The notes below the pieces were generated by a model. It saw nothing but the letters and a program-made list of their open reading frames with translations. It made no database searches and was not told the DNA's origin. Of a stretch of DNA of 64,000 nt, positions 1 to 45,400 are shown piece by piece. Origin of the DNA: a virus (taxonomy: Duplodnaviria > Heunggongvirae > Uroviricota > Caudoviricetes); IMG/VR virus record IMGVR_UViG_2526164631_000023, one strand, 5' to 3'. Position numbers and translations under genes: made by a program. The stretch's first letter is position 1, and each line of letters begins with the position of its first letter.

Positions 1-860
1 TCCCAGCCTTCAACGTGCTTGTCGGTCACCAGCAGGTTCAGCTTACGCTTGGACATCACAGTGTATTCCAGATTCAGGCGCGAAAATTCGTACTGGCGCG
101 GGTGAACAGGAATGGTGATGTTGTCCAGTACCCAGTCATACAGACGACGGTTGTCCTGGAACTCAAGCGTACACAGAGAGTGCGTAATACCTTCCAGCGC
201 ATCGCTGATGCAGTGGGTGAAGTCGTACATCGGGTAGATGCACCACTTGTTGCCAGTCTGGTGATGTTCAGCAAACTTAATGCGGTACAGCACCGGGTCG
301 CGCATCACGATAAACGGCGAAGCCATGTCGATTTTCGCACGCAGGCAGGCTTTACCTTCTTCAAAACCACCGGCACGCATTTTTTCGAACAGCGCCAGGT
401 TCTCTTCAACGCTGCGGTCGCGGTACGGGCTGTTTTTACCCGGCTGCGTCAGGGTGCCGCGGTATTCGCGGATCTGTTCCGGCGTCAGTTCGTCAACATA
501 CGCCAGGCCTTTGTTGATCAGTTCAACAGCATAGGCATGGAGTTTGTCAAAATAATCGGAGGAGTAACGGATGTTGCCAGACCAGTGAAAACCTAACCAT
601 TCAACGTCGTTTTTAATCGACTCGACGTACTCGATATCTTCTTTTACCGGGTTAGTGTCGTCGAAACGCAGGTTGCACTGGCCTTTATAGTCCTGGGCGA
701 TCCCGAAGTTCAGGCAGATAGATTTCGCATGACCAATATGCAGATAGCCATTCGGTTCCGGCGGGAAACGGGTATGTACTGTGGTGTGCTTACCACTGGC
801 CAGATCTTCATCGATGATCTGACGAATAAAGTTAGTCGGGCGGGCTTCTGCCTCACTCAT
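1..860 (-). CDS. glnS: Glutaminyl-tRNA synthetase, N-terminal ~286 codons; gene continues beyond window start
   Basis: Reverse-strand translation from ATG (complement of 858-860) reads [47 protein letters not shown]... with class I HIGH motif; recognised from memory as enterobacterial GlnS. Absent from ORF track because there is no stop inside the window. Confidence 0.85.
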
Positions 861-2682: not shown

Positions 2683-3663
2683 TTAACCGATTGCTTTCAG
2701 GCCATGAACAAGAGCAAGTTGCGGGTCATCCGCCACGAAGAAACGGTCATCACGAATATTAACTTGCTCGCGAATTGCATCTGCCACCAGCGGTGCGCCA
2801 CCACCGATCACCATGACATGCGTATATCCTTTAAAGTCGCCAATCACATCAAGAACGCGGGTACGCAGACGGTCAATGCTTGCGGCAATGGCCTTTTTCA
2901 CATCACCAATCGCTGATGGGTCATTGATATTGTCGTTCAGATAATCTTCATCGTGGCGGTTAATAATGAGCTGATCAACATTGTAATTTGACGTTTCGGT
3001 ATTGGCTCTGGCAAGTGCTTGCCTTACTTCCCTGGTAACCAGAGAGACGCCAAGATTCGAATCGCCAAAAACACGGGAAACTGCCGTCATTTGCCCGGCG
3101 ACCATTGAAACATCAAGGGTAGTTCCACCCAAATCGACGATAAGAACAGAATGGGCAGGGTTCAGATTGTCGCACAGGCCAATTCCTGCCGGAATAGACT
3201 CCGGGCGTACCGTAACTTTCTTAATCGTGAACACATTGCCTTTATTCAGCGTGACGGGGCGCATAAGGCTGGCTTTCTTGCGCTCGATGTTATCGAGATT
3301 GTATTGCGCGTCGTCGTCGTAAAACTCCGCCAGAGGCAGCGTGACCACAATTTCTACTTCCTGCGGCTCAATGCCACTTGTCAGCAGGGCATGGTGAACA
3401 GCCAGGACGTTAAGCGGGCTGTATTGCCATTCCACGTTATTCGTCGGCAGAACATCTGGCGAGATCAAATCATACGAATACTTTTCGTCGTCAATGACAT
3501 AGTTAAACGGCTTGCCAGCACAAAATGTTGCTGACCATCCGCGCTTAAAGCTGTTAGGGCTGATGTGAGTGCGAGTTTCCCCGTCGTGCTCCCACAGCAT
3601 TTTGATATTGGTTGAACCATCATCGATAAAAATGCGCATCTTCTTGCTCCACTTCTGAGACAC
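2683..3663 (-). CDS. parM: ParM/StbA actin-like plasmid segregation ATPase (type II partition)
   Basis: MRIFIDDGSTNIK..HISPNSFKR..WQYS..NVLAVHHALLTSG..ESIPAG..DLGGTTLD..YGDSNLGVSLVT..THVMVIGGGA: actin-fold phosphate and adenosine motifs closely matching R1 ParM as remembered. Confidence 0.85.
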   Translation of the reverse strand: MSQKWSKKMRIFIDDGSTNIKMLWEHDGETRTHISPNSFKRGWSATFCAGKPFNYVIDDEKYSYDLISPDVLPTNNVEWQYSPLNVLAVHHALLTSGIEPQEVEIVVTLPLAEFYDDDAQYNLDNIERKKASLMRPVTLNKGNVFTIKKVTVRPESIPAGIGLCDNLNPAHSVLIVDLGGTTLDVSMVAGQMTAVSRVFGDSNLGVSLVTREVRQALARANTETSNYNVDQLIINRHDEDYLNDNINDPSAIGDVKKAIAASIDRLRTRVLDVIGDFKGYTHVMVIGGGAPLVADAIREQVNIRDDRFFVADDPQLALVHGLKAIG

Positions 3664-3825
3664 ATTTGAGAATCAAAATGCAATTTTAAAAGAGAAGCAC
3701 CCAAAAATCCACACCAAAAGAGATAAAAAAGAGTGATTATTGAGTTCATTTTGAGAATATCTTAATCACCCAATGAATGATGGTCTGACAGTGAGATTTA
3801 TTTGAGAATGAATTGAGAATACAAA
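3664..3825. repeat. parC-like centromere: iterated TTGAGAAT repeats upstream of parM
   Basis: TTGAGAAT at 3666, 3751, 3802 and 3813 plus a degenerate copy near 3740, in AT-rich DNA immediately upstream of parM. Confidence 0.45.
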
Positions 3826-3905
3826 AATATTCCGAAATTTAACTCTCAGTTTGAATGACGAAATAACAAAGTGATGACAATAGGAGGATAACCAGGAGGT
3901 GAAGA

Positions 3906-4190
3906 ATGAGCGCAATAGCCACCAGCGACACCCTTTGTTCTGGTCACGGAGGATTTCCGCCGCGACTGGTAGCTGAAACTGTTCCCTGGTTCACCGTTAA
4001 CGGTAAGCCAATTGTTGTAGATGGTGCCATGTTTCCCAGTCACACTGACGGTAACAGTGCACATCCAGGGGCAGCTGTATCGACGCGAGTATGGTTTTCG
4101 ATAGGTGGAAAGGGAGTTGTCTGTGTAGGCGATCCGCTTTCTTGTGGTTCTGTTATCGCCAACGGCGAGGATATTTTTCAGGTTGCATAA
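3906..4190 (+). CDS. PAAR-like domain protein (spike-tip type)
   Basis: 94 aa with CSGHGG, VNGKPIVVDG, IGGKGVVCVGDPLSCGS repeats typical of PAAR domains; good SD aggagg upstream. Confidence 0.5.
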   Translation: MSAIATSDTLCSGHGGFPPRLVAETVPWFTVNGKPIVVDGAMFPSHTDGNSAHPGAAVSTRVWFSIGGKGVVCVGDPLSCGSVIANGEDIFQVA

Positions 4191-4993
4191 TGCTTGATTC
4201 AATAGGTGAAGTTAAAGCCTTCAAAATTCTGTCAGATGCCGGTATCTCTACACCAGAATCTATAACCATAAGCCGGGCAGCGTCTGTAAAAGCCTCATCA
4301 CTCGCCAGCGCCATACAGGGAATAGTTCACGCCGATAAAACCTATCCTGATTCTGTTTCGGCCTGGACTACTCAATTGCTTGGCTTTTCTGAACAGCTAA
4401 ATGAGGCCAGCAAAGCGTCTTCATTACTGGCTGATTCTCTTTCCCCATACACCAAGCCATCAGAGCTGTTACAGATGAAGATTGGCTGGGAATGCTACGT
4501 AAAAGGTAACGAGCTGACCCCCATACCTGCTTTCGCCCTTGTTGAGGGGATGGGGAATGTTTCCATTCCGCAATCTCTAACGGACGCATTGACGGCGCTA
4601 AAACTTGATGCTCTGAAAACCGCCATGAACGCCATTAACGCAAAAATAGAAGCTGCTGGAAGTGCTGGTGGTGATAGCAATGGTGGACAGGGTGGTGCTG
4701 GGGGCGCTCAGGCTCCAGTCATTACTCAGGATGAAATTGAAGCTTTACGGGAAGCAGTGACAGCCGCCGAAGTTTTACTCTCCGAAATTAACTCAGCAAG
4801 TGAGAGTGTCGTAGCCCTTACAGGTCGCATTAAAACGTCAACCACTCAGGCAACCAAAGGTTTAGAGAACGCTGTCGCCATCACGTTAACTGGTTCTCTA
4901 CTGGATGATGCAGTAATGAGTCCGGCAATCAGTTTAATCATGCCACAAGGCGTTATCGATGCGCTCCAAAAGAACACCAAAAAGGAACCATAG
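4190..4993 (+). CDS. Hypothetical protein with Gly-rich linker, translationally coupled to the PAAR gene
   Basis: ATG overlaps the PAAR stop (TAATG at 4188-4192); 267 aa; GSAGGDSNGGQGGAGGAQAP linker; the track start at 4091 is an upstream alternative. Confidence 0.45.
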   Translation: MLDSIGEVKAFKILSDAGISTPESITISRAASVKASSLASAIQGIVHADKTYPDSVSAWTTQLLGFSEQLNEASKASSLLADSLSPYTKPSELLQMKIGWECYVKGNELTPIPAFALVEGMGNVSIPQSLTDALTALKLDALKTAMNAINAKIEAAGSAGGDSNGGQGGAGGAQAPVITQDEIEALREAVTAAEVLLSEINSASESVVALTGRIKTSTTQATKGLENAVAITLTGSLLDDAVMSPAISLIMPQGVIDALQKNTKKEP

Positions 4994-5018
4994 CAACACC
5001 ACTTAGGAACACAAAAGG

Positions 5019-5522
5019 ATGCGAATTGGTACATGTTTAACACCAAAAATGAACCTGGAGAGGATGGTTTTGAAAAAGATAATTTTGATTGTAATTGCGC
5101 TTTTAGCCATTTCTGGAATTTACCGAACAACGACGGCAGTTATCGAACACATCAGGTATGTCCGATCGCTTGAAGACTCAAAATCACAACTGGAAAGCAC
5201 GAACAACACGCTTTCTACCGCATTACAGTTAAGTGAGAACGCTCGCTCAGCCATGCTGACCGAAAACGAAAGAATTAAAGCACTGGAAAAGGAGTACCAG
5301 CGCAAAACAGCAGAACTGAATGCCAACCTAATCAAACAACGAGAGGAAAGCCAGAATGAAATCACTCGCCTTGAAAATGCGTTGCGCCGTGCTGGGATTA
5401 ACGATGTGCGTGTGCCTGATGACGTTATCAGGATGCAGCGGGAACGGGCAAAAGCCATCAACCAGCGTGCCAGTGAAAATTACCGTAGAAGCCACCAGCA
5501 AGCCGCAGGCAAATCTGATTGA
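5019..5522 (+). CDS. i-spanin (Rz-like): N-terminal membrane anchor plus periplasmic coiled coil
   Basis: Hydrophobic KKIILIVIALLAISGIY followed by charged heptad-rich region; true start may be an internal ATG (5049 or 5064). Confidence 0.5.
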   Translation: MRIGTCLTPKMNLERMVLKKIILIVIALLAISGIYRTTTAVIEHIRYVRSLEDSKSQLESTNNTLSTALQLSENARSAMLTENERIKALEKEYQRKTAELNANLIKQREESQNEITRLENALRRAGINDVRVPDDVIRMQRERAKAINQRASENYRRSHQQAAGKSD

Positions 5523-5688
5523 TTACTCCCCTTGTTTAGTGCCAGAAGACACGCCAGTGCTGTTAAACAAGTATCCGACATACGCTGAACAGTTATTCAG
5601 CACGATCGACGAATGCAACCAACGAAACGCACTGAATAACCAAAGAAACAGGGAGATTTGGGAAGGGAAGGGGGATCAAGGCTCCTGA
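5356..5688 (+). CDS. o-spanin (Rz1-like) outer-membrane lipoprotein, out of frame within and beyond the i-spanin 3' end
   Basis: Signal peptide with lipobox LMTLSGC; SD gaggaaag 8 nt upstream of ATG; overlaps 5356-5522 of the i-spanin gene in another frame. Confidence 0.5.
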   Translation: MKSLALKMRCAVLGLTMCVCLMTLSGCSGNGQKPSTSVPVKITVEATSKPQANLIDYSPCLVPEDTPVLLNKYPTYAEQLFSTIDECNQRNALNNQRNREIWEGKGDQGS

Positions 5689-6134
5689 AGCCAGATGTCC
5701 TGGCTGTCAGCTTCTTCGAAACCGTGACAGACGTTAAAGTCACTCAAACGATACTGACGCTGACGGCCCCTATTTCGCTCATGCCAATGCATATATCCAC
5801 CAGCAAATGCCAGCGGACAATCGCTATAGTCTATGTAACCAATACCATTCCCCAAACGTGCTTCGCGCGCACCAGCTTTCCAGGACAGTAGAAAAGAGTC
5901 ACGATCCGCCAGCATAACAACAAAATCGTCCGGATCTCCGATACAGTGAAGAATACCTGCCTTACATAACTGCTTGAGCGCTTTTGACTGGCTCAGGATG
6001 TCTTCTCCGTAATACTGAAAACAATCATCAACAACAGCGGGATAGCCTGTCGGGGGATTCAGGCTGGTTGGTATAGCTGACGCGATCGCCAGCATTAAGC
6101 GATATTGTGTTTTTGATGGGTTGACGTGACTCAT
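5676..6134 (-). CDS. Hypothetical protein (152 aa, Cys/His-rich)
   Basis: ORF only; second gene of a leftward two-gene unit downstream of operator-like site at 6557. Confidence 0.3.
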   Translation of the reverse strand: MSHVNPSKTQYRLMLAIASAIPTSLNPPTGYPAVVDDCFQYYGEDILSQSKALKQLCKAGILHCIGDPDDFVVMLADRDSFLLSWKAGAREARLGNGIGYIDYSDCPLAFAGGYMHWHERNRGRQRQYRLSDFNVCHGFEEADSQDIWLQEP

Positions 6135-6150
6135 TTTGTCCCTTGTTTAC

Positions 6151-6543
6151 TCATTGTCGCCATGCATTTTTTAACTCAGGAATATCTGCCATTTCAATTA
6201 ACTTGCGAAGTCCAGCACTGACTTTCCCATTGCCAACCATAGCAAGCCAATCTCTTACAGCTTTCGGCATGTAGAGCGTTGCAGTTACCGGCTCTTCAAC
6301 CCTGGCAGGACATCCGCATACAGGCCATTTAATTGATTCCATAACTTCGGATGCCGGGGTGAGGGCGGGGACATTGAGTATATCTCTACCAGAAAACTGG
6401 ATAACGATCCGTTCAGCGAGCGAGAGTATCTCACTTTCGGCAAGAATTGATGCCAACTGCGCCTCAACAAGAAAGCGACTTGTTGTGTTCAGAGAGTGGC
6501 TCTTAGCGCCATTTTTATACGAAACAAAGATTCGATACGCCAT
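6151..6543 (-). CDS. Hypothetical protein (130 aa)
   Basis: ORF only; first gene of the leftward unit; operator-like motif just upstream of its start. Confidence 0.3.
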   Translation of the reverse strand: MAYRIFVSYKNGAKSHSLNTTSRFLVEAQLASILAESEILSLAERIVIQFSGRDILNVPALTPASEVMESIKWPVCGCPARVEEPVTATLYMPKAVRDWLAMVGNGKVSAGLRKLIEMADIPELKNAWRQ

Positions 6544-6556
6544 AACTCTAATGATT

Positions 6557-6575
6557 TGTGTTAGAAAACTAAAAT
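6557..6575 (+). promoter_or_regulatory. Operator-like motif copy a (TGTGTTAGAAAACTAAAAT)
   Basis: Member of a dispersed family of asymmetric ~19-bp sites, consensus tGTGTTAGAAA(a/t)(c/t)TAA(a/t)T. Confidence 0.45.
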
Positions 6576-6701
6576 TAAATCACATAACAACATGAGTGTT
6601 AATATATTTTATTTTACTAAACCTATTGACTAAATCACAAAGTAGGTATTGTTAGCCCGTCAAAAGAACCTTCACGCCGCGCCCGAATTTAGGGCTTAAC
6701 C

Positions 6702-8399
6702 GTGAATAAAAACATTCAGCCAGCTCGTGATCGCGAGCGCGAGATTATGAATCGGGCGGCAAGCGTCATGGCTATGACCGTCGATCCGACCACCGATGCA
6801 GCAGGCAACATGATTGCTGACCAGGCAGTAATGATGGAAAACCTGGATAAAGCAATCCAGAAAGTGCCTATGTTTGAAGGCGTAAATCCAGAGGTCGCTC
6901 GTCAGATCACTGGTGGGTGGGCTATGTCTCTGCATGAGTATAAACGTCAACATGGTCATTACCCGGCAAGTGACATCCTGGCGAACGCACACATGGCTCT
7001 TGAGCGCCTGATGACTGAATGTGCCAGTGATACCCATGAAGGCACGGGTAAGGCAATGTTTGAGTCTGTCGCGCAATCAATGCGTAGCTCTGACGGCGTA
7101 ATGAAAGTTGCTCAATATGCTGCTCTAATTCTGCCTGCCTCTCTGGGCGCTGCTACCAGTGATGCCTGTACTTTTGTTCCTTGTGATCGTGACGAGTCAA
7201 ATATTTATGAACTGGTCAACGTAGCAGGCACAAAATTCGGCACCTTCAACCAAGGTGACGAACTGAATATGCAGTCAGCTGGTGTTTATTCTCAAATGAA
7301 GCGCCTGTATGCCCTTTCCACTAAAGGGGATGGCAGCACCAAAACCTTCCAGTTCAACATCCAAAATTTTGAGGGACAATCCTGCCCGCTTCGCGCTGGT
7401 TATAACAAACTGCTGATCAACCGCAAACCGTCCAAAGTTGACGACGGCGATGGCAACCTTTATTTCAATGCTAAAGACAGCAAAGGTAATGCTTTCTCAG
7501 CGACTGCCAAAGTTGCCTATGACACTGGTGTCATTGACATTACATTTACCCAGGCTCCGCCAGAAGGTACTGAAATTGCTGTTCAGGTCGAAATTAACAT
7601 CGAGCGCAATCCAAGCCTGATTCCGGTGATCAACCAGGCTATGCGTAAGTACGAAGTTCGTCCGTCCCAGTACGTACTTGCTTCCGAACACACGGTAATG
7701 TCCGCATCCGATTTAAGCCGTGAGCACGGCCTTGAATTAGCGGCACTTCAGTTCTCCGCGATGCGCAACTGGATCTCCCATGAAACCGACATCATGCGTC
7801 TGCGCACCCTGGTATTCCATACCGTTTATGGTCGTGAATTTGATGTGGCTCTGCCGGAAGCTCAAAACTATGAGTCCTGGGTCGGTCTCCTGCGTCACGT
7901 AGTAAACGCTCTGTCTCAAGAAATGGCAAATCGTACCCTGACAACGGGTATTCGTGGCGGCTTTGCTGGTAGTGACGCCGCGAACTTCCTGCGCTCTCTG
8001 CCTCCACAGCACTTCCAGATCGCACCAGGTTACGTTCAGTCGCCGTATGTACAGTACATCGGCACCCTGTTTGGCACGATTCGTATTTACGAAGTGCCGC
8101 AACCTGTCTGTGAGCAATTCCAGGCACAGGGATATGACTTCGGGCTGGATGACATCTTCTTCTATGGGCGTGGCGAAGGCATCGGTAAAGCCGGTCTGAT
8201 TGCTGGTGATGCAGTCCCAGCAATCCCTTACGTTCACGAAACCAATCCGTCTCTCGTTAACCGTACCACTCTCTGGGGCAGTGCCATCAACGAAGTACAT
8301 CCTCGCAACGGTGAAAACTACTTCACCCGCCTGCGTCTGACTCGTGCCAAAGAAGGTGCTATCGACATGCTGACAGGCAAGGTTAACGAAAAAAAGTGA
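6702..8399 (+). CDS. Virion structural protein, candidate major head protein (565 aa)
   Basis: Large ORF opening the structural block; size close to the P1 major head protein as remembered; assignment by size and context only. Confidence 0.35.
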   Translation: MNKNIQPARDREREIMNRAASVMAMTVDPTTDAAGNMIADQAVMMENLDKAIQKVPMFEGVNPEVARQITGGWAMSLHEYKRQHGHYPASDILANAHMALERLMTECASDTHEGTGKAMFESVAQSMRSSDGVMKVAQYAALILPASLGAATSDACTFVPCDRDESNIYELVNVAGTKFGTFNQGDELNMQSAGVYSQMKRLYALSTKGDGSTKTFQFNIQNFEGQSCPLRAGYNKLLINRKPSKVDDGDGNLYFNAKDSKGNAFSATAKVAYDTGVIDITFTQAPPEGTEIAVQVEINIERNPSLIPVINQAMRKYEVRPSQYVLASEHTVMSASDLSREHGLELAALQFSAMRNWISHETDIMRLRTLVFHTVYGREFDVALPEAQNYESWVGLLRHVVNALSQEMANRTLTTGIRGGFAGSDAANFLRSLPPQHFQIAPGYVQSPYVQYIGTLFGTIRIYEVPQPVCEQFQAQGYDFGLDDIFFYGRGEGIGKAGLIAGDAVPAIPYVHETNPSLVNRTTLWGSAINEVHPRNGENYFTRLRLTRAKEGAIDMLTGKVNEKK

Positions 8400-8544
8400 T
8401 GGTGGCGAACGTGTCGGTATCACCAACGTCACTTGACGTAGATGAAGGTGAAACTATCGCCGCGAACACTTCAAAGGCACAGAAAAAACAAAGCAGAAGT
8501 AAGGCAAAAACACGCCCCTGATTAAGGGGCGTTCAGGAGAAAAA

Positions 8545-8823
8545 ATGGCAAACATTCAAGTAACTATCACGCCATCTGACGCAACAGACAAATCTTTCAC
8601 TGTTGAGTCAGATCACCCTGATATTGTCCGGGTTGATGGCACTACATGTACCGCTCTTAAGGTCGGGCAGGCAGTGCTGACAATCAAAACAAATGACGGC
8701 AATAAAACCGCACAGTGCACAGTCACTGTTAGGGAGGCACATAAAAGCGTAAGCACCGTCAGTGTTGAACCAACTACGAAAGAAGTTACCGTAGGCGATA
8801 ACTTCACGGTAAGCCAATCCTGA
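8545..8823 (+). CDS. Bacterial Ig-like (Big_2-type) domain protein, probable virion decoration
   Basis: 92 aa with beta-rich ITPSDAT..FTV..DIVRVDGTT.TALKVGQAVLTIKT..GNKTAQCTVTV pattern typical of phage Ig-like domains. Confidence 0.5.
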   Translation: MANIQVTITPSDATDKSFTVESDHPDIVRVDGTTCTALKVGQAVLTIKTNDGNKTAQCTVTVREAHKSVSTVSVEPTTKEVTVGDNFTVSQS

Positions 8824-8890
8824 TCAGAGGCTGCCCATTAACCGTGGGTAGCCTTGCCTCGTTCTCTCGCTTTAGAGGATAAGAACCAGC

Positions 8891-10549
8891 ATGAATAAGA
8901 TTAGTTTTTCGGTAGGGCAGGCAGCTGGCGTTGCTGTAATGTCAGTAAATGCTGACGCTACCCTCACCAATACCAGCGGTGGCGCATCCGTCTTTGCTGG
9001 GCTTGTAATATCGCGTCGTGGCGCACCGGGTAAGGTACTGAAAGTTGACGATACGACTTATCAAAGCGTATTAGGTTCACCGATTCACCCTCGCCAGGGC
9101 GCGGCATTTGAACCATATCGCCACGTGGAGCGTGCAGTAAAAGGCGGCTCTGGATATGTCGTTCGAGTTTGCGCTAAAGACATGAAGGTGCCGGGTATTT
9201 CTGTTTCCGTTGTGGGCAAAGCAAAAGCGGCAAAGGCGAGCAAAGAACTTTCCGTTGAACCTACTGAAACCACAGTAAATCCAGGTGACACATTAAGCGT
9301 TGGTGTTGCTTCAACTGCAACGACTCAATCAGTGACCTTCACACCCAAAGAGACGCCCCAGATTAAAGGTGGAGAGAAGGCATTATTCTTCATCAAAGAT
9401 GGTGATGCATCTCAAAATCGCACGTTATCACTAACTCGCGATGATGAAGAAAGCGAACTCTTTACGCTGACGCTGAAAGAAAAACAAACCGATGGGTCCA
9501 TTGAGGTGCTGGAAAGCCACCAAGTGTCTTTCAATCCAGAAGGCACCAACGACATGGGCCAACCAGCATGGATTCCGACACTGCTTGAAAGCCAGTCCTC
9601 TCGCATTGGTGCCGTACTGGCAGATAATGCAGAAGCATCCGCTGCTCAACTCATTTTTGAGGATGTAGCTTTTGAAGGTGGTACTGATGGAAATCTGTCC
9701 GAAATTAACGCTGCAGACTATCTGGAAGCATTAAAGGTTCTCGAAGCTTCAGAGGTTAATTACACCGCATTGCTGTCATTGGGTTGTTATGACGCATCCG
9801 CCTTAGCCGCAATCAAAAAGCTGGCTGAAGATGTTCGCGTAGACATGTTCTATGACCTGAAGGGCAACCAGACACCTGAAAACGCTATTTCAGAAGCGAA
9901 AAGCCATAGTTTTGGCGGCTCACATCAACCAAGCCGTTACTACTTCCCGCTCTCCTGCCGAGATACCTTCACTGGGATGAATGTCGTCTATGGCATTAGT
10001 TGCGACGCATTCGTAGCAAAAGCAAAAGGGGTAGCGCTGGTACCGGATGTTGGTGGTTGGCATTACGCACCGGCAGGTATATCACGCGCGATTATTGATC
10101 GACAGAACATTGCCCGAATTCCAAATATCGGTGCAGTTGATCGTGAAGCGTTCGTTCTTGCGCGCATTAATCCGGTTTCAGTTGCTGCTGATGGGTCCGT
10201 TTACATTGACGACTCTTTAACAACTTACAGCAAAAACAACTATCTGCGATTCCAGCATGTGTCTTCCTTGATGAACGCCATCGCCAGAGATTTCTATGAA
10301 GTAGCTCAGGCGATTAAGCACGAACCGGATGGCATTACCAAAGAAACGCTAATGAAAGCAATGACTGAATTGCTTGACCGTTACGTTGCAGCCGGTGCGC
10401 TGGTTACTCCACGTGACAAGTCCCAGGGTGAAGATCCATACGTTGTTCAGGTTGTCCAAAAGGACATCGATCTGTGGGAAGTGTCCTGGTCTGTTTGTCC
10501 GACCGGTACAGCTCGCCGAATCGTCGGTAAGCCAATTCTGATGCGCTGA
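8891..10549 (+). CDS. Candidate tail sheath protein (552 aa)
   Basis: Size and position beside candidate tube gene; C-terminal ARINPVSV..SVYIDDS segment sheath-like; unverified. Confidence 0.35.
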   Translation: MNKISFSVGQAAGVAVMSVNADATLTNTSGGASVFAGLVISRRGAPGKVLKVDDTTYQSVLGSPIHPRQGAAFEPYRHVERAVKGGSGYVVRVCAKDMKVPGISVSVVGKAKAAKASKELSVEPTETTVNPGDTLSVGVASTATTQSVTFTPKETPQIKGGEKALFFIKDGDASQNRTLSLTRDDEESELFTLTLKEKQTDGSIEVLESHQVSFNPEGTNDMGQPAWIPTLLESQSSRIGAVLADNAEASAAQLIFEDVAFEGGTDGNLSEINAADYLEALKVLEASEVNYTALLSLGCYDASALAAIKKLAEDVRVDMFYDLKGNQTPENAISEAKSHSFGGSHQPSRYYFPLSCRDTFTGMNVVYGISCDAFVAKAKGVALVPDVGGWHYAPAGISRAIIDRQNIARIPNIGAVDREAFVLARINPVSVAADGSVYIDDSLTTYSKNNYLRFQHVSSLMNAIARDFYEVAQAIKHEPDGITKETLMKAMTELLDRYVAAGALVTPRDKSQGEDPYVVQVVQKDIDLWEVSWSVCPTGTARRIVGKPILMR

Positions 10550-22612: not shown

Positions 22613-22706
22613 TAATTCTTCCCCCAAATGCGGGGGAAGAACAACGGAAATCACAAACTGAGCATACTCTCCTTTGGTTCATTGCTTATGAAGGGGCTAT
22701 GTTCGT

Positions 22707-31125: not shown

Positions 31126-31229
31126 ATGTCCCCCTTGTATGTTAAGGAGGGAGATTTTAGAAGATGTCCTGTAAGGAAATAACAAACTGACTAAGTTAGT
31201 GGCGCATTAGATGTTATTTCTGGAGGGGT

Positions 31230-31556
31230 ATGTTTGCAGATTATGAAAATCTGGCTGTAGTAGTCATAACATCCCTACTAAGTGGAACCGGCGTATTCCT
31301 TCTCGGAGTTAGAGACGGGCGCATTTCTGCGTCCCTGCTCAATCTTGCGAGTGAATTGTTTACTGCGGTAACAGCCGGGCTTGCGGGGTATGGGGTGGCG
31401 GTTAGCCAAGAATGGCCTGAAGGTATCATTTTCTGCGTTGTTCTGATTGCCAGTAACAACGGTAGTGAAATTTTACAGGGCTTAAAGTCCAGAGCTAGTA
31501 ACGTCTTGAATCTCTTAAGCGTAATAGCGAATGGGGGAAAAGGTGGAGAGAAATAA
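31230..31556 (+). CDS. Holin-like small membrane protein (P1 LydA position)
   Basis: 108 aa with hydrophobic segments; SD ggagggg; first gene of a long rightward operon. Confidence 0.4.
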   Translation: MFADYENLAVVVITSLLSGTGVFLLGVRDGRISASLLNLASELFTAVTAGLAGYGVAVSQEWPEGIIFCVVLIASNNGSEILQGLKSRASNVLNLLSVIANGGKGGEK

Positions 31557-32002
31557 TGGGTAACTTTGGAAATTATTTCATTTTTATCATGGCATTTGTT
31601 GCCATCATTGACCGTTTCATTTTTCGTCGCAAGAGTGTTGAGATTTTGAGTATTGGTGACGCTGTAGTGAAAGAATCCGCTATAGCATTTCCTGTTTCGC
31701 TACGTGTTAAGCGAAGCTGGGTCAGCAATGCTCAAATCGAATATTGGTTGCAAGACCTGAAAAATCCATCTGTGGTTATTTCAGGGAAAACGCGACCAGT
31801 TGACGCCTCAAAACGCGGTGAGAGAGAAGAGTATTTGCTCATCGATACGAAATATCTTGAGCCAACGAAGTGGGATCTGAAAGTCACATTGACTAACGGT
31901 AACTGTCGACTGAATCCGCTTTATCGCATTTTCCCTATCAATGACTGCATAGAGCGCCAGTTTACGATCGAAAAGCGTGAAGGAGACTGGGATGTCAAAT
32001 AA
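31556..32002 (+). CDS. Membrane-anchored protein (P1 LydB position; possible antiholin)
   Basis: 148 aa, N-terminal hydrophobic FIFIMAFVAIIDRFIF; start overlaps previous stop. Confidence 0.35.
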   Translation: MGNFGNYFIFIMAFVAIIDRFIFRRKSVEILSIGDAVVKESAIAFPVSLRVKRSWVSNAQIEYWLQDLKNPSVVISGKTRPVDASKRGEREEYLLIDTKYLEPTKWDLKVTLTNGNCRLNPLYRIFPINDCIERQFTIEKREGDWDVK

Positions 32003-36395: not shown

Positions 36396-36459
36396 ACCAA
36401 CCGCTGAAATCACATACTGATTATGCTGCCGCAAAACTGGAAACAATTTGCGGTGATTC

Positions 36460-41892: not shown

Positions 41893-42378
41893 TCATGCCT
41901 CATTAGTTGAGGTTGCTGCGTCTCCGACTGGTAACAGAGCGGTATTGCGTGGTTCGCCAGCAGGCCAGCGATAGCCAGACACTCTTGATGTTGGGAATGC
42001 GCGAATATTAACCGCATCCCCCTGGTTCCCACCCAGGACAAGCAGATCGCCATTGGCGCGGCGTCCGACAACGAAGCCTACGTGCCCACCGCCTACGCGG
42101 GTAAATACAACGATACATCCGTATGCCGGTGTATCTAATTTCTCGCCCCAATCCAGATAGGATTTTGCCGACTCAAATCTTGTTGAGCGGATGCCTACAC
42201 GTTCCAGCATTGCACCGACAAATGCTGCGCACCACGGCGTTTCATCGTCTTTAATTCCGCCGCGCTTGATGTCGCGCCAGAACTGAACGATTTCAGGGTT
42301 GTGTTTAGCGCCTTTTATTTCAGTCAGGCCAATGTGCTTACGGGCTTCAATTAGCCAGCGAGGTTCAATGTTTGCCAT
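41893..42378 (-). CDS. CHAP/NlpC-P60-like Cys-His peptidase domain protein
   Basis: ETPWCAAFV (Cys) and GGHVGFVV (His) spacing typical of CHAP-type hydrolases; divergent from the DarB-like gene. Confidence 0.45.
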   Translation of the reverse strand: MANIEPRWLIEARKHIGLTEIKGAKHNPEIVQFWRDIKRGGIKDDETPWCAAFVGAMLERVGIRSTRFESAKSYLDWGEKLDTPAYGCIVVFTRVGGGHVGFVVGRRANGDLLVLGGNQGDAVNIRAFPTSRVSGYRWPAGEPRNTALLPVGDAATSTNEA

Positions 42379-42453: not shown

Positions 42454-45400
42454 GTGAAAATAACATTCTCCATACCCTCTCAACCGTACCGCATAGCGGA
42501 ATTTTTACGGTTTAGAGGGGGAAATCCTTTGGACAAACTACTTCATTCAATCAGTGAAGCCTCCAGCTTAGGCGAACTGATTGAAATTGTTAGTCGGTTG
42601 CATAAATTACGAGCTGTTGCGACCTTTGGCGTCAGGAAAGCCGATGGCGTCAGTATTCAGAAAACACGCCGGGCAGCAAACAATGCCGCAGTAAATCTTC
42701 TTAATTCCCTTCCGCCCGGCTTCGATGGGGCGAAATTAACTGACGAACAACGTCAGATTCTTGCCGGGTATACCGGTGAAGGCGGCCTGACAGATGGTGA
42801 GGGCAGCCAATACGAATACTACACGCCACAGTTTATGGCTGAAGGTATATGGGATCTGTTTGCTGGCTACGGTATTGATGGCGGGCACGTACTGGAACCA
42901 TCAGCGGGCACAGGTATTTTCCAGGAGACAAAACGACAGGGCATGATAATGACCAGCGCCGAACTGTCTCCGATTTCCGGTCGAATAAACCAGCTTTTGC
43001 ACCCGGAAGACGATGTGAATATCGGGGCGTTTGAGGCGCTGGCGGCGAAAGACGCAATGTATGATCACGCTGTTGGTAACGTACCGTTTGGTGAAGGGCG
43101 TTCCGGTGTCGCCGGGCTTGATCCGGCATATGCAAACGAGAAGAACGTTGGCAATTACTTTGTGCTGCGCACGATCGACAAGGTTAAGCCTGGTGGGCTT
43201 ATCGTATTGGTGGTGCCGAATGGCATGACCGATGGTGCGAAATATAAAAAATTGCGCGATAAAGTCAGCCGTAAAGCGGAATTTTTGGGCGCGCATCGTA
43301 TGCCTTCCGGTACGTTCAGTGAATCAGGTACAGATACCGTGGTGGACGTATGGGTATTGCGTAAACACCCGGAAGCCTTCCTGGAGATGATCCCCGATAC
43401 GGATGATTCGACGCTCAAATCGGCAAACGTCCTTTGGGATACCTTCCTCAAAGGAAAATGGTTTACAACCGAAGGGAAGCGATTTGTTTACGGCGACATG
43501 GAACGTACCAGCTTCCGCAATACCCTGGTGGTGAAAAAAGACGGTCGTGTATCCAATGAGTCGATGAAAACCGCGCTATCTCGTCGCTTTGATAGTCGCA
43601 TCAATTGGGATTTGCTCGGCGTAACTACTCAGGCATGGCAGGGCGCGAAAGTGGGCGATAAACGCCTTGTAGGCGGTATCTGGCATGAGTTTGATGGTCT
43701 GAAATGGGTTAAGGACACGACAACCAAATCCTCCGCGCTTGATGTAAGTCGATATGGTGTTTCGACGTTTGGCGATCTGCAGATCGCGTTTCAGTCAACA
43801 AATGGCATTCTGGCTTTGTCATGGGACCAGATATCGGCGATCGCGTCTGACTATCCATCGGTTGTCAGTGATGAAGTGGCAGCAATGATTCGCTTTGCTG
43901 GCAAGCAGCGAGAAAAAGACAGGGAGCGCGTTATGCGCGGTGCACTGATAGGTCAGTTGATCAACAAGGCACTTGATTTGCGTAACCTGGGGGTGAACGT
44001 TGATGACAAACTGGCAGATGCATCCCGCCTGGCGGCAGCAGAAGTTGCGAAGTATGGACCACCGCACGCGATTAAGCTGAATGGGCTTGCTGAAGCTGGC
44101 GCTAAAAACTGGATGACGTTCACTGGCAATGTGAAACAGGATGGTTCCACTTCTGACCTTCTGGCAGGGCGACTTGATGTAACGGATGGTGCTGCCGGTA
44201 TTGACTTTACGCGTCCTGAACAAGTGATAGCACATCTTTTTAGTGATGTAGCCCTTAATCCTATAACGCTGGGCGACTTTCGTGAGGCGTTTGCTGGTGA
44301 ACTGCCAGAGGACGACGACGCGGCCCTTGAATACCTGGCGAAATTTGATGATATCGCTATTGATGGGTATGGCTGTCTGCTGCCGATGGACCGCGCCACC
44401 AGCGGCGATGTTGCAACCAAAACAGCACTGCTGATGGGCTGGCGTGATGCGTCAACAGGTGAGCAGAAAGCGAACTTTGAGCGTCAGTTGGCGAAAATCG
44501 AAGAGAAACGTATTTTCACGCCACTAAATAAAGTCACCGTTAATCTGAATGCCCGCTGGCTGGATCGCCGCTTGATAAAAGAGTTCCTGGCAGAGCAGGG
44601 CTATGACGAGTTTAAGTACACTGAACCTGATCTGAAGGTCGTCGATGGCATTCTGGTATCTCCGGACGATTACGAAGGTAAGGACGGGGTATTTACCGGC
44701 TATCAGCTACGAACCGTAAACGGCAAAAACGGGAATGAGTTCAAGAAGGCCAACAATAAAGACGGCTTCCTGAACCAGTTAGAAAACTACCTGAACGGTG
44801 TTAAACCGCGTGGGCAGAACGCTAACGAGTACCTGGATAAAATTGCTCAACTGGAAGTTAGTTTTAACGACTGGTTACGCACTCACCCGCAGGCTGATCA
44901 GATAGCCCGCGAGTATAACGACGCATTCAATGGTTTCATTCCGTTCACGCATTCTGACGCACCGCTTGGCCTGGAAGGGCTTAGTGGAAAGCGCATTCCT
45001 CTTACTTATCAGAATGAAGAAGTTCGGCGCTTGTCAGAAGATGGGCGCGGCATCATGGGATTTGGTACCGGGCTGGGTAAAACCACGACCGCGCTTGCGC
45101 TTGAGGCGTATAACTTCGAAACAGGTCGCACTAAACGCACGTGTATTGTTGTTCCGAAGGCGGTTTATCAGAACTGGTATCACGAGGCACAGAGTTTCTA
45201 CAGTGCTGATGCCTTCGCCAATATGATGTTTATCGGTTTGGATGAAGTTCGTGATGACAGCGGAAATATTCTGACCGCGCCGGTGCTTGATGAAAATGGC
45301 GAACCACGCCTCGACAGTAACGGGCAGCCTCTTACCAGAAATGTTGTGAAAGAGTCCGCCAGCGCCGTTATCGTTCAGCGTATGAACATGATCCCGTCGT

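Follow-up and report, generated by a model that had tools for sequence, protein, structure and literature searches.

Do two overlapping genes of a P1-related phage-plasmid, which lie far away from its other lysis genes, encode a spanin, i.e. an inner-membrane subunit (i-spanin) plus a lipoprotein subunit of the outer membrane (o-spanin) acting in lysis? The question arises from positions 5,019 to 5,688 of a 64,000-nucleotide (nt) stretch of the Caudoviricetes record IMGVR_UViG_2526164631_000023, in the following called the window, for which a first-pass annotation had proposed a spanin pair with the architecture of Rz/Rz1. Escherichia phage D6 is a myovirus related to P1 whose prophage is a plasmid; bases 4000-9000 of the window match it with 98.9% identity, and bases 4900-5800 are 100% identical to the E. 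coli plasmid NZ_CP066033.1; judged by these identities, the window is part of a D6-like, P1-related phage-plasmid. In PLSDB, the region with the two genes occurs in 123 plasmids of Escherichia, Salmonella, Shigella and Enterobacter. Our analysis indicates that the pair is likely a two-component spanin of the overlapped class and the D6-lineage orthologue of P1 PpfA (i-spanin) and Mlp (o-spanin).

A predicted lipoprotein gene starts within a gene for a predicted membrane-anchored protein

The locus contains the following features, named here according to the proposed assignment:

5070..5522, plus strand: putative i-spanin gene, 150 amino acids (aa), TTG start; Shine-Dalgarno (SD) sequence AGAGG at 5059-5063, 6-nt spacer
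5356..5688, plus strand: putative o-spanin gene, 110-aa precursor and 84-aa mature form, start codon ATG 5356; SD sequence GAGG at 5343-5346, 9-nt spacer
5356-5433, plus strand: predicted o-spanin signal peptide; lipobox L-S-G-C at 5425-5436, Cys27 codon at 5434-5436
5356..5522, plus strand: dual-coding overlap of 167 nt, i-spanin in frame 0 and o-spanin in frame +1

The lipoprotein gene reported by the first-pass annotation withstood the lipoprotein-signal check. Translation from ATG 5356 to the stop at 5688 yields a precursor beginning with MKSLALKMRCAVLGLTMCVCLMTLSGC followed by SGNGQKP..., in which Cys27 of the LSGC lipobox conforms to a PROSITE PS51257-like rule. Positions +2/+3 are occupied by Ser-Gly and there is no Asp at +2. 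The protein is expected to be lipidated at Cys27 and, since Ser at +2 is no Lol-avoidance signal according to the established lipoprotein-sorting rules, to be sorted to the outer membrane by the Lol pathway. In all six frames of a shuffled 64-kilobase (kb) sequence, about 0.9 PS51257-like open reading frames (ORFs) are expected as compared to three in the window, and among these three only the ORF at 5356-5688 has a hydrophobic core. The scan of the 64-kb window for ORFs with lipoprotein signals, which did not cover the about 27 kb of a D6-type genome that lie outside, revealed no second o-spanin or u-spanin candidate.

The mature o-spanin comprises 84 residues including seven prolines. In the AlphaFold2 model of the precursor (mean predicted local distance difference test score, pLDDT, of 73), the signal helix is followed by an extended linker and this by a helix near the C-terminus (residues 74-102) that is predicted with confidence; the C-terminal part carries two invariant cysteines. 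In the family alignment, C60, Y76, C87 and N88 are invariant, C60 and C87 being periplasmic; the last roughly eight residues (EGKGDQGS) are probably dispensable, as far as the sequences tell. The protein matches PHROG families annotated as 'Rz-like spanin' (phrog_456, E=2.8e-5; phrog_30284, E=7e-4), and the only PDB match of its family profile is RcsF (E=0.15), obtained through the signal peptide. Database searches returned six matches by word index and twelve in an exhaustive representative search, many of them truncated at the N-terminus, and the family looks small mainly since the gene is rarely called. The length of the o-spanin varies among relatives: it has 107 aa in an E. marmotae plasmid (L009 1957-2280) and 126 aa in an E. 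coli plasmid (L010 1957-2337), where its tail reaches into the convergent gene.

For the first gene, the reading frame is open from 5007 and has its first ATG at 5019 and its stop at 5522. The start at 5019 assumed by the first-pass annotation had to be revised, because the start conserved in seven related loci is a TTG or GTG codon preceded by AGAGG at a 6-nt spacing, which in the window corresponds to TTG 5070. The frame upstream of the motif KK(I/T)II (KKIILIV in the window) is not conserved among these loci, and orf55 of D6 likewise starts at the equivalent of TTG 5070 and encodes 150 aa. ATG 5019 thus probably lies 51 nt too far upstream.

The product of this gene reads MKKIILIVIALLAISGIYR..., followed by a charged, cysteine-free stretch, and agrees with the earlier description of a membrane-anchored, helical protein. 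Its N-terminus carries the basic residues K2 and K3 and then the predicted membrane anchor IILIVIALLAISGIY at residues 4-18, where the 15-residue Kyte-Doolittle average reaches its maximum of 2.9. No second hydrophobic segment was detected by the Kyte-Doolittle analysis, and the single predicted N-terminal anchor fits an N-in/C-out type II topology. In the AlphaFold2 model (mean pLDDT 86.5, alignment of 10 sequences), a helix of residues 2-107, which includes the anchor segment, is joined through a linker (residues 108-116, AGINDVRVP) to a second helix (residues 117-146), so that the periplasmic domain as modelled has roughly 130 residues, two helices and no cysteines. The closest PDB sequence match of the family profile is the coiled-coil protein ZapB (E=0.0018), reflecting coiled-coil composition; PDB searches with the family profiles gave no structurally solved relative of either protein. 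A Foldseek search of BFVD with the i-spanin model returned nothing at E<3, which is no surprise for a model that is essentially one long helix. All members of the i-spanin family share the motif PDDVIRMQRERAK without change, and the protein matches 'Rz-like spanin' PHROGs (phrog_214, E=4.7e-16; phrog_89, E=2.7e-7).

The overlapped layout is conserved and both frames are under purifying selection

The lipoprotein gene starts out of frame (+1) within the 3' part of the i-spanin gene, at 0.63 of its length, and ends 166 nt past its stop codon. The text of the first-pass annotation had described this layout correctly, but its heading called the pair embedded, which is wrong: with the o-spanin stop at 5688 as compared to the i-spanin stop at 5522, the architecture is overlapped (P2/P1 class) and not embedded (lambda class) according to the class definitions in PMC6139136. 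Within the overlap, frame 0 encodes the i-spanin stretch ...VPDDVIRMQRERAKAINQRA..., and frame +1 encodes the signal peptide, the lipobox and the N-terminal linker of the o-spanin.

ATG 5356, its SD sequence and the MKS start of the protein are kept in the ten D6-type loci that were compared, and the SD sequence of its own that had been ascribed to the lipoprotein gene (GAGG 5343-5346) is therewith conserved. The two P1/P7 loci have an MNQ start and a different upstream sequence. D6 and six diverged plasmids, whose hosts are E. coli, E. marmotae, E. fergusonii, Shigella and Enterobacter, all have an intact o-spanin ORF that includes the hydrophobic core and the LSGC lipobox. ORF, lipobox and overlapped layout are also retained in two metagenomic relatives of 41-48% identity (L012, L014), and the lipobox ORF is intact in P1/P7, too.

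Next to conservation of the frames, the pattern of substitutions is informative. As compared to the roughly 83% identical locus L006, the ratio of nonsynonymous to synonymous changes (pN/pS) is 0.28 in the zone encoding only the i-spanin (Fisher p=5e-7) and 0.16 in the zone encoding only the o-spanin (Fisher p=2e-10), whereas the control frames yield non-significant values of 0.9-1.6. Comparison with diverged loci by the Nei-Gojobori method gave pN/pS values of 0.25-0.5 and 0.09-0.37 for these two zones in their own frames, respectively, and of 0.8-3.3 when the same zones were read in the wrong frame. These ratios clearly point to purifying selection on both genes in their own frames. Differences from L006 amount to 0.097 per nt in the overlap and to 0.175 and 0.224 per nt in its flanks (p=0.005), and an overlap that diverges about half as fast as its flanks is the expected signature of two simultaneous constraints.

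These data also bear on a trivial explanation, namely that the second ORF is a chance frame or begins only at GTG 5467, as does the 73-aa orf54 of D6, in which case there would be no lipoprotein and no spanin pair. In its favour, the D6 record has the short form, and plasmid records annotated by the Prokaryotic Genome Annotation Pipeline (PGAP) list no coding sequence (CDS) at this place. However, gene callers miss or truncate the o-spanin gene in 260 of 528 systems (Kongari et al.; PMC6139136), a bias that affects overlapped o-spanin genes. Moreover, ATG 5356, the SD sequence, the hydrophobic core and LSGC are kept in relatives down to 41% identity, the lipobox is present in P1/P7 as well, and purifying selection is seen in the downstream part of the frame. 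As far as sequence goes, conservation and selection rule out both a chance ORF and a non-lipoprotein ORF starting at GTG 5467, and we attach next to no probability to this explanation.

The pair corresponds to ppfA and mlp of P1 and P7

The genes upfC (PAAR), upfB, ppfA and mlp of P1 and P7 agree with their counterparts in the window in both order and strand. As annotated, mlp overlaps ppfA by 167 nt in the +1 frame, exactly as in the window, and the o-spanin precursor has 110 aa in both cases. The lipobox context is nearly identical (LTLSGCSG in the window versus MTLSGCSG in P1/P7), and the codon for the lipobox Cys has an identical phase and falls on corresponding i-spanin residues in the alignment (PDDVIRMQRE in the window versus PADTQRLLRE in P7). 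This shared register in both lineages implies that the overlap is older than the P1/D6 split.

The proteins themselves have diverged considerably. BLASTP aligns the window o-spanin with P7 Mlp at 31% identity (E=9e-9), and the o-spanin family profile recovers P7 Mlp by hhalign with 98% probability (E=2.8e-13). The i-spanin shares about 20% identity with P7 PpfA in a collinear alignment (E=0.015). P7 PpfA and Mlp match the same 'Rz-like spanin' PHROGs (214/89 and 456/30284, respectively) as the window proteins; the top PHROG matches of the latter, 17671 and 17138, are labelled 'unknown function' and represent shortened forms of the two window proteins. With 31% (o-spanin) and 20% (i-spanin), identity to the P1 proteins stays below the SpaninDB family rule of 40% identity over 40% of the length. 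By this rule, the window proteins would be placed in families separate from those of P1, while synteny and profile homology argue for orthology.

Previous work lends support to this correspondence. The putative P1 spanin genes were identified from predicted features and described as partially overlapping and as forming part of an operon that is not linked to the remaining lysis genes (PMC9025707), and the SpaninDB entry for P1 has the class 'ovl' (overlapped) and names PpfA as i-spanin. There are also differences: the second conserved cysteine, C87 in the window o-spanin, is missing from Mlp, the P1 pair is followed by a further gene on the same strand, upfA, whereas the operon in the window ends at a convergent gene, and the P1 endolysin is the SAR (signal-arrest-release) lysozyme Lyz as compared to a CHAP/TIGR02594 enzyme as candidate in the window. 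In both P1 and the window, the pair is unlinked to the holin and endolysin genes.

Comparison with other spanins

We compared the pair with the features by which Summer et al. 2007 and Kongari et al. 2018 recognise two-component spanins. All those that can be read from sequence are present: a type II anchor, a helical periplasmic domain, a signal peptidase II (SPII) lipobox, a +1 overlap and a periplasmic cysteine, the last of which occurs in 507 of 528 spanin systems (Kongari et al. 2018). The i-spanin has no and the o-spanin two cysteines (C60, C87), which is the commonest pattern in SpaninDB and also that of T4 (PMC6139136). The combined periplasmic length of about 214 residues lies inside the range of 62-300 given in the same study.

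The prototype of the overlapped class is P2 LysB/LysC, in which the o-spanin gene likewise uses the +1 frame, begins within the 3' part of its partner and runs past the end of the latter. The window o-spanin gave a weak hhalign match to P2 LysC (E=3.8e-4, 36% probability) with both cysteines aligned, whereas hhalign detected no significant similarity of the i-spanin to P2 LysB. The P2 pair sits in the lysis cassette directly after the holin gene, the endolysin gene and lysA; in contrast, the window pair is unlinked.

Phage lambda Rz/Rz1 is the only mechanistically dissected spanin system. The Rz/Rz1 architecture ascribed to the locus by the first-pass annotation holds in so far as the features of a spanin pair are concerned and fails with respect to the lambda-type embedding, since Rz1 lies wholly within Rz and the window o-spanin gene extends 166 nt beyond its partner (P2/P1 overlapped class). 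Rz1 has about 40 aa and is unstructured, whereas the mature window o-spanin has 84 aa and a predicted C-terminal helix (PMC6139136). Rz contains two periplasmic cysteines and Rz1 one, as compared to none and two in the window, and hhalign revealed no detectable similarity of the i-spanin to Rz. Nonetheless, both systems share the protein topologies and the placement of the o-spanin in the +1 frame, and presumably also the mechanism.

In T4, the spanin genes are located away from the holin and endolysin genes, and the same is true for the window. The T4 pair PseT.3/PseT.2, which belongs to the separated class, shares the cysteine counts of 0 and 2 with the window pair, and PseT.2 resembles the window o-spanin in its size of 83 aa and its predicted C-terminal helix (PMC6139136). 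The T4 genes do not overlap, unlike those of the window.

The lysis genes are dispersed and share a late-promoter-like element

Apart from the putative spanin, the window contains the following lysis genes and candidates:

31230-31556, plus strand: lydA, holin; 100% identical to the D6 protein by tblastn, phrog_1527 'holin' (E=8e-39)
31556-32002, plus strand: lydB, antiholin; 100% identical to the D6 protein by tblastn, Pfam LydB (E=1e-24)
41893-42378, minus strand: endolysin candidate of the CHAP/TIGR02594 type, 161 aa; Pfam CHAP (E=2.7e-7, above cut-off), TIGR02594 (E=5e-42)

The lydA/lydB genes are P1-like. The product of 41893-42378 matches PHROG 'endolysin' families (E about 9e-7) and, tail genes aside, is the sole candidate for a peptidoglycan hydrolase; a hydrophobic, signal or SAR segment is absent from its N-terminus. 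The CHAP candidate is unrelated to the SAR lysozyme Lyz of P1, which P7 encodes beside lydD, and no homologue of lydC or lydD was seen beside lydA or the hydrolase gene. The set of lysis genes is thus a mosaic of a P1-like holin/antiholin and spanin and a non-P1 endolysin candidate. The spanin pair lies about 25 kb from the holin gene and 36 kb from the endolysin candidate, in line with the first-pass annotation, which had placed it far from both functions (31230-32002 for lydA/lydB and 41893-42378 for the CHAP candidate).

Upstream of the spanin genes, two further genes have the same orientation:

3906..4190, plus strand: upfC homologue encoding a PAAR-motif protein, first gene of the putative operon; Pfam PAAR_motif (E=8e-6), phrog_281 (E=1e-28)
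4190..4993, plus strand: upfB homologue, second gene of the putative operon; phrog_1559 (E=8e-111)

The D6 annotation of the first of these genes reads 'similar to P1 gene upfC', and the product of the second is 27-28% identical to P1/P7 UpfB across 98% of its length (tblastn). No terminator-like site was detected between 4993 and 5070. Sigma-70-like sites in the region 3500-6800 occur at chance frequency (five found, 4.5 expected), and a generic scan for sigma-70 promoters and terminators was uninformative. Comparison of the regions upstream of late genes uncovered a shared element, AAAT(C/A)ACA(A/T)A(C/G)T-N3-NANNNT, whose last hexamer is -10-like. The pattern AAATMACAWAST-N3-NANNNT has six exact occurrences and one with a single mismatch in the window as compared to 0.20 expected:

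3861..3881, plus strand: AAATAACAAAGT-GAT-GACAAT, 25 nt upstream of the upfC start codon
6632-6652, plus strand: late-gene upstream element
22648-22668, plus strand: late-gene upstream element
31177-31197, plus strand: upstream of lydA
36407-36427, plus strand: late-gene upstream element
42434-42414, minus strand: upstream of the endolysin candidate
42458-42478, plus strand: late-gene upstream element

Every occurrence lies upstream of a late gene and in the correct orientation, and none was found elsewhere on either strand. The genes preceded by the element are upfC, capsid gene 23, tail-fibre gene R, lydA, portal gene prt, the endolysin candidate and darB. D6 and the five diverged plasmid loci L006, L007, L009, L010 and L011 have kept the copy upstream of upfC, and it recurs with one substitution in the most distant relatives, L014 and L008. 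The element is similar to the Lpa-dependent late promoters annotated in P7, in which a -22 box AAGT(G/T)A(C/T)T is separated by 4-5 nt from a -10 hexamer. A search for the P1-type box itself (AAGTKAYT-N6-WA) gave no match in the window, and the 8-mer with one mismatch occurred at chance level, for which reason the D6-type box was derived de novo. Judged by its sequence, the element looks like the D6-lineage version of the Lpa-dependent late promoter of P1 (-22 box plus -10), and the copy at 3861..3881 is likely the promoter of an operon upfC-upfB-i-spanin-o-spanin.

The location of the pair invites another interpretation. The lipoprotein could be a lysogenic-conversion or superinfection-exclusion factor that blocks or modifies a receptor, its partner an unrelated or accessory envelope protein and the overlap a matter of genome compaction. 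Receptor-modifying or receptor-blocking phage lipoproteins are exemplified by T5 Llp, the Cor proteins and lambda Bor. Small phage lipoproteins often play such roles, the pair does not adjoin a holin or endolysin gene, and knock-downs of mlp and ppfA in P1 left plaque formation unaffected (see below). However, the sole promoter-like element of the operon is one common to capsid, portal, tail-fibre, holin and endolysin genes, sigma-70-like sites being at chance level in 3500-6800. Moreover, the partner has the exact layout of an i-spanin (anchor, helix, linker, helix), the +1 overlap and its register are kept from P1 to D6-like elements, and both proteins match 'Rz-like spanin' PHROGs. An exclusion lipoprotein is therefore very improbable.

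The surroundings of the operon are also worth recording. On its downstream side, two genes on the opposite strand follow:

5676-6134, minus strand: convergent gene, phrog_8101, no Pfam match
6151-6543, minus strand: next gene beyond, phrog_7830, no Pfam match

The o-spanin stop region (5676-5688) overlaps the 3' end of the convergent gene by 13 nt, from which we conclude that the operon ends there. The PAAR-motif gene upfC and upfB are co-oriented and apparently co-transcribed with the spanin pair in the P1 as well as in the D6 lineage, a company that is unusual for lysis genes. Just upstream of the operon and divergent from it lies a ParM/StbA-type partition gene (2683-3663, minus strand). 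Further upstream, a partial ORF at 1-860 (minus strand) corresponds to a D6 gene annotated as glutamine--tRNA ligase (GlnS-like), which is uncommon in phage-plasmids. In P1, the corresponding region is occupied by upfA, oriR and repA instead, which lie downstream of the spanin pair.

Is the pair required for lysis?

Several observations count against the proposed assignment. In a CRISPR interference (CRISPRi) screen of P1, mlp (efficiency of plating about 0.2), ppfA, upfB and upfC were scored as non-essential for plaque formation (PMC10695390). Spanin function is something we infer from sequence features for the D6-type pair and for the P1 pair alike. When the i-spanin profile was aligned by hhalign with lambda Rz, P2 LysB and P7 PpfA, none of the matches was significant (E 0.02-0.15). 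The Pfam scan of the pair yielded only sub-threshold hits to DUF6158 and O_Spanin_T7 (PF17531), the latter with 16.0 bits and thus below the cut-off of 25. No NCBIfam model reached its cut-off for either protein, and the window proteins are absent among the matches of TIGR03495 LysB and NF038368 P2_Rz1, even at E<=0.1. Lipoprotein processing of the o-spanin was judged by a pattern rule and not by LipoP or SignalP. Finally, the upstream regions in which the late-gene element was counted are those that had served to define it, and the count is partly circular; the lack of matches elsewhere on either strand is still informative.

With regard to the CRISPRi data, the same screen scored lambda Rz as essential and the lambda endolysin R as non-essential (PMC10695390). 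The latter result implies that negative CRISPRi results for lysis genes are unreliable. In addition, lysis in the laboratory does not require spanins when the culture is shaken (PMC9025707). The P1 result together with this dispensability under shaking is the reason why we keep some probability for a redundant or condition-specific role. In such a scenario, the spanin would be genuine but redundant or vestigial, another factor would mainly disrupt the outer membrane and the pair would contribute only in particular hosts or conditions. Yet both genes show purifying selection (pN/pS 0.09-0.5), the ORFs are intact in all loci examined in a region present in 123 plasmids, and the lipoprotein-signal scan, confined to the 64-kb window, gave no second candidate for an o-spanin or u-spanin. 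Taking both sides into account, we consider redundancy unlikely.

A more radical departure would be that the pair and its P1 counterpart are not primarily a lysis device at all. They could form a bridging complex that serves another envelope function, e.g. superinfection exclusion or a host-specific conditioning of the envelope for virion release. This idea comes to mind because the pair is apparently co-transcribed with a PAAR tail-tip protein and UpfB and lies apart from the holin and endolysin genes, and because its knock-down in P1 is harmless; we regard it as quite unlikely. In a more modest version, P1- and D6-type phages may possess a fully dispersed lysis system that is timed purely by the shared late-promoter box.

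A proposed model for spanin function in D6-like phage-plasmids

If the pair is a spanin, as we propose, its action may be pictured by analogy to lambda Rz/Rz1 and T4 PseT.3/PseT.2 (PMC6139136). According to the shared motif, the two genes would form the end of a late operon that they share with upfC and upfB, and the three dispersed lysis loci, which are not physically linked, would instead be synchronised through a late promoter of the Lpa type that all of them possess. During late expression, the two subunits would accumulate in the inner and outer membrane, respectively. Their periplasmic domains would bind each other, yielding a periplasm-spanning complex that is threaded through the murein meshwork and restrained by it. 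The cysteines of the o-spanin probably form DsbA/DsbC-dependent disulfides that are needed for activity, as may be expected from the T4-like 0 + 2 pattern. Once the LydA holin has permeabilised the inner membrane and the CHAP-type endolysin has degraded the murein, the complexes would be free to move and to change conformation. The liberated complexes would then fuse the inner and outer membranes, thereby removing the last barrier to virion release.

Annotation status and significance

Both genes are listed as 'hypothetical protein' in the GenBank and RefSeq records of D6, in which spanins are not mentioned. Orf54 of D6 starts at the equivalent of GTG 5467 (V38), resulting in a 73-aa product that has lost the signal peptide (NC_050154.1 55088-55309; L001 7471-7692). 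In PGAP-annotated D6-like plasmids (loci L006-L011) there is no CDS for the o-spanin, and most of its remote database homologues are truncated at the N-terminus in the same way (P0026-P0035). A paper on D6-like Salmonella plasmids names only LydA/LydB and a peptidoglycan hydrolase as lysis functions, and our search of the accessible literature found no paper linking D6 with spanins.

Taken together, the pair is real and conserved, and it is the diverged counterpart of the already predicted ppfA/mlp pair of P1; the finding is correct but ordinary. It opens no new biological question and is mainly an annotation correction, which concerns phage-plasmids that are common in E. coli, Salmonella and Shigella. 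With the correct labels, the lysis set of these elements would be complete, comprising the LydA holin, the LydB antiholin, the CHAP/TIGR02594 endolysin candidate and a PpfA/Mlp-type spanin. The comparison with P1 also shows that the overlapped layout and the exact register of the lipobox have been retained since the split of the P1 and D6 lineages, while the proteins themselves fell to 20-31% identity.

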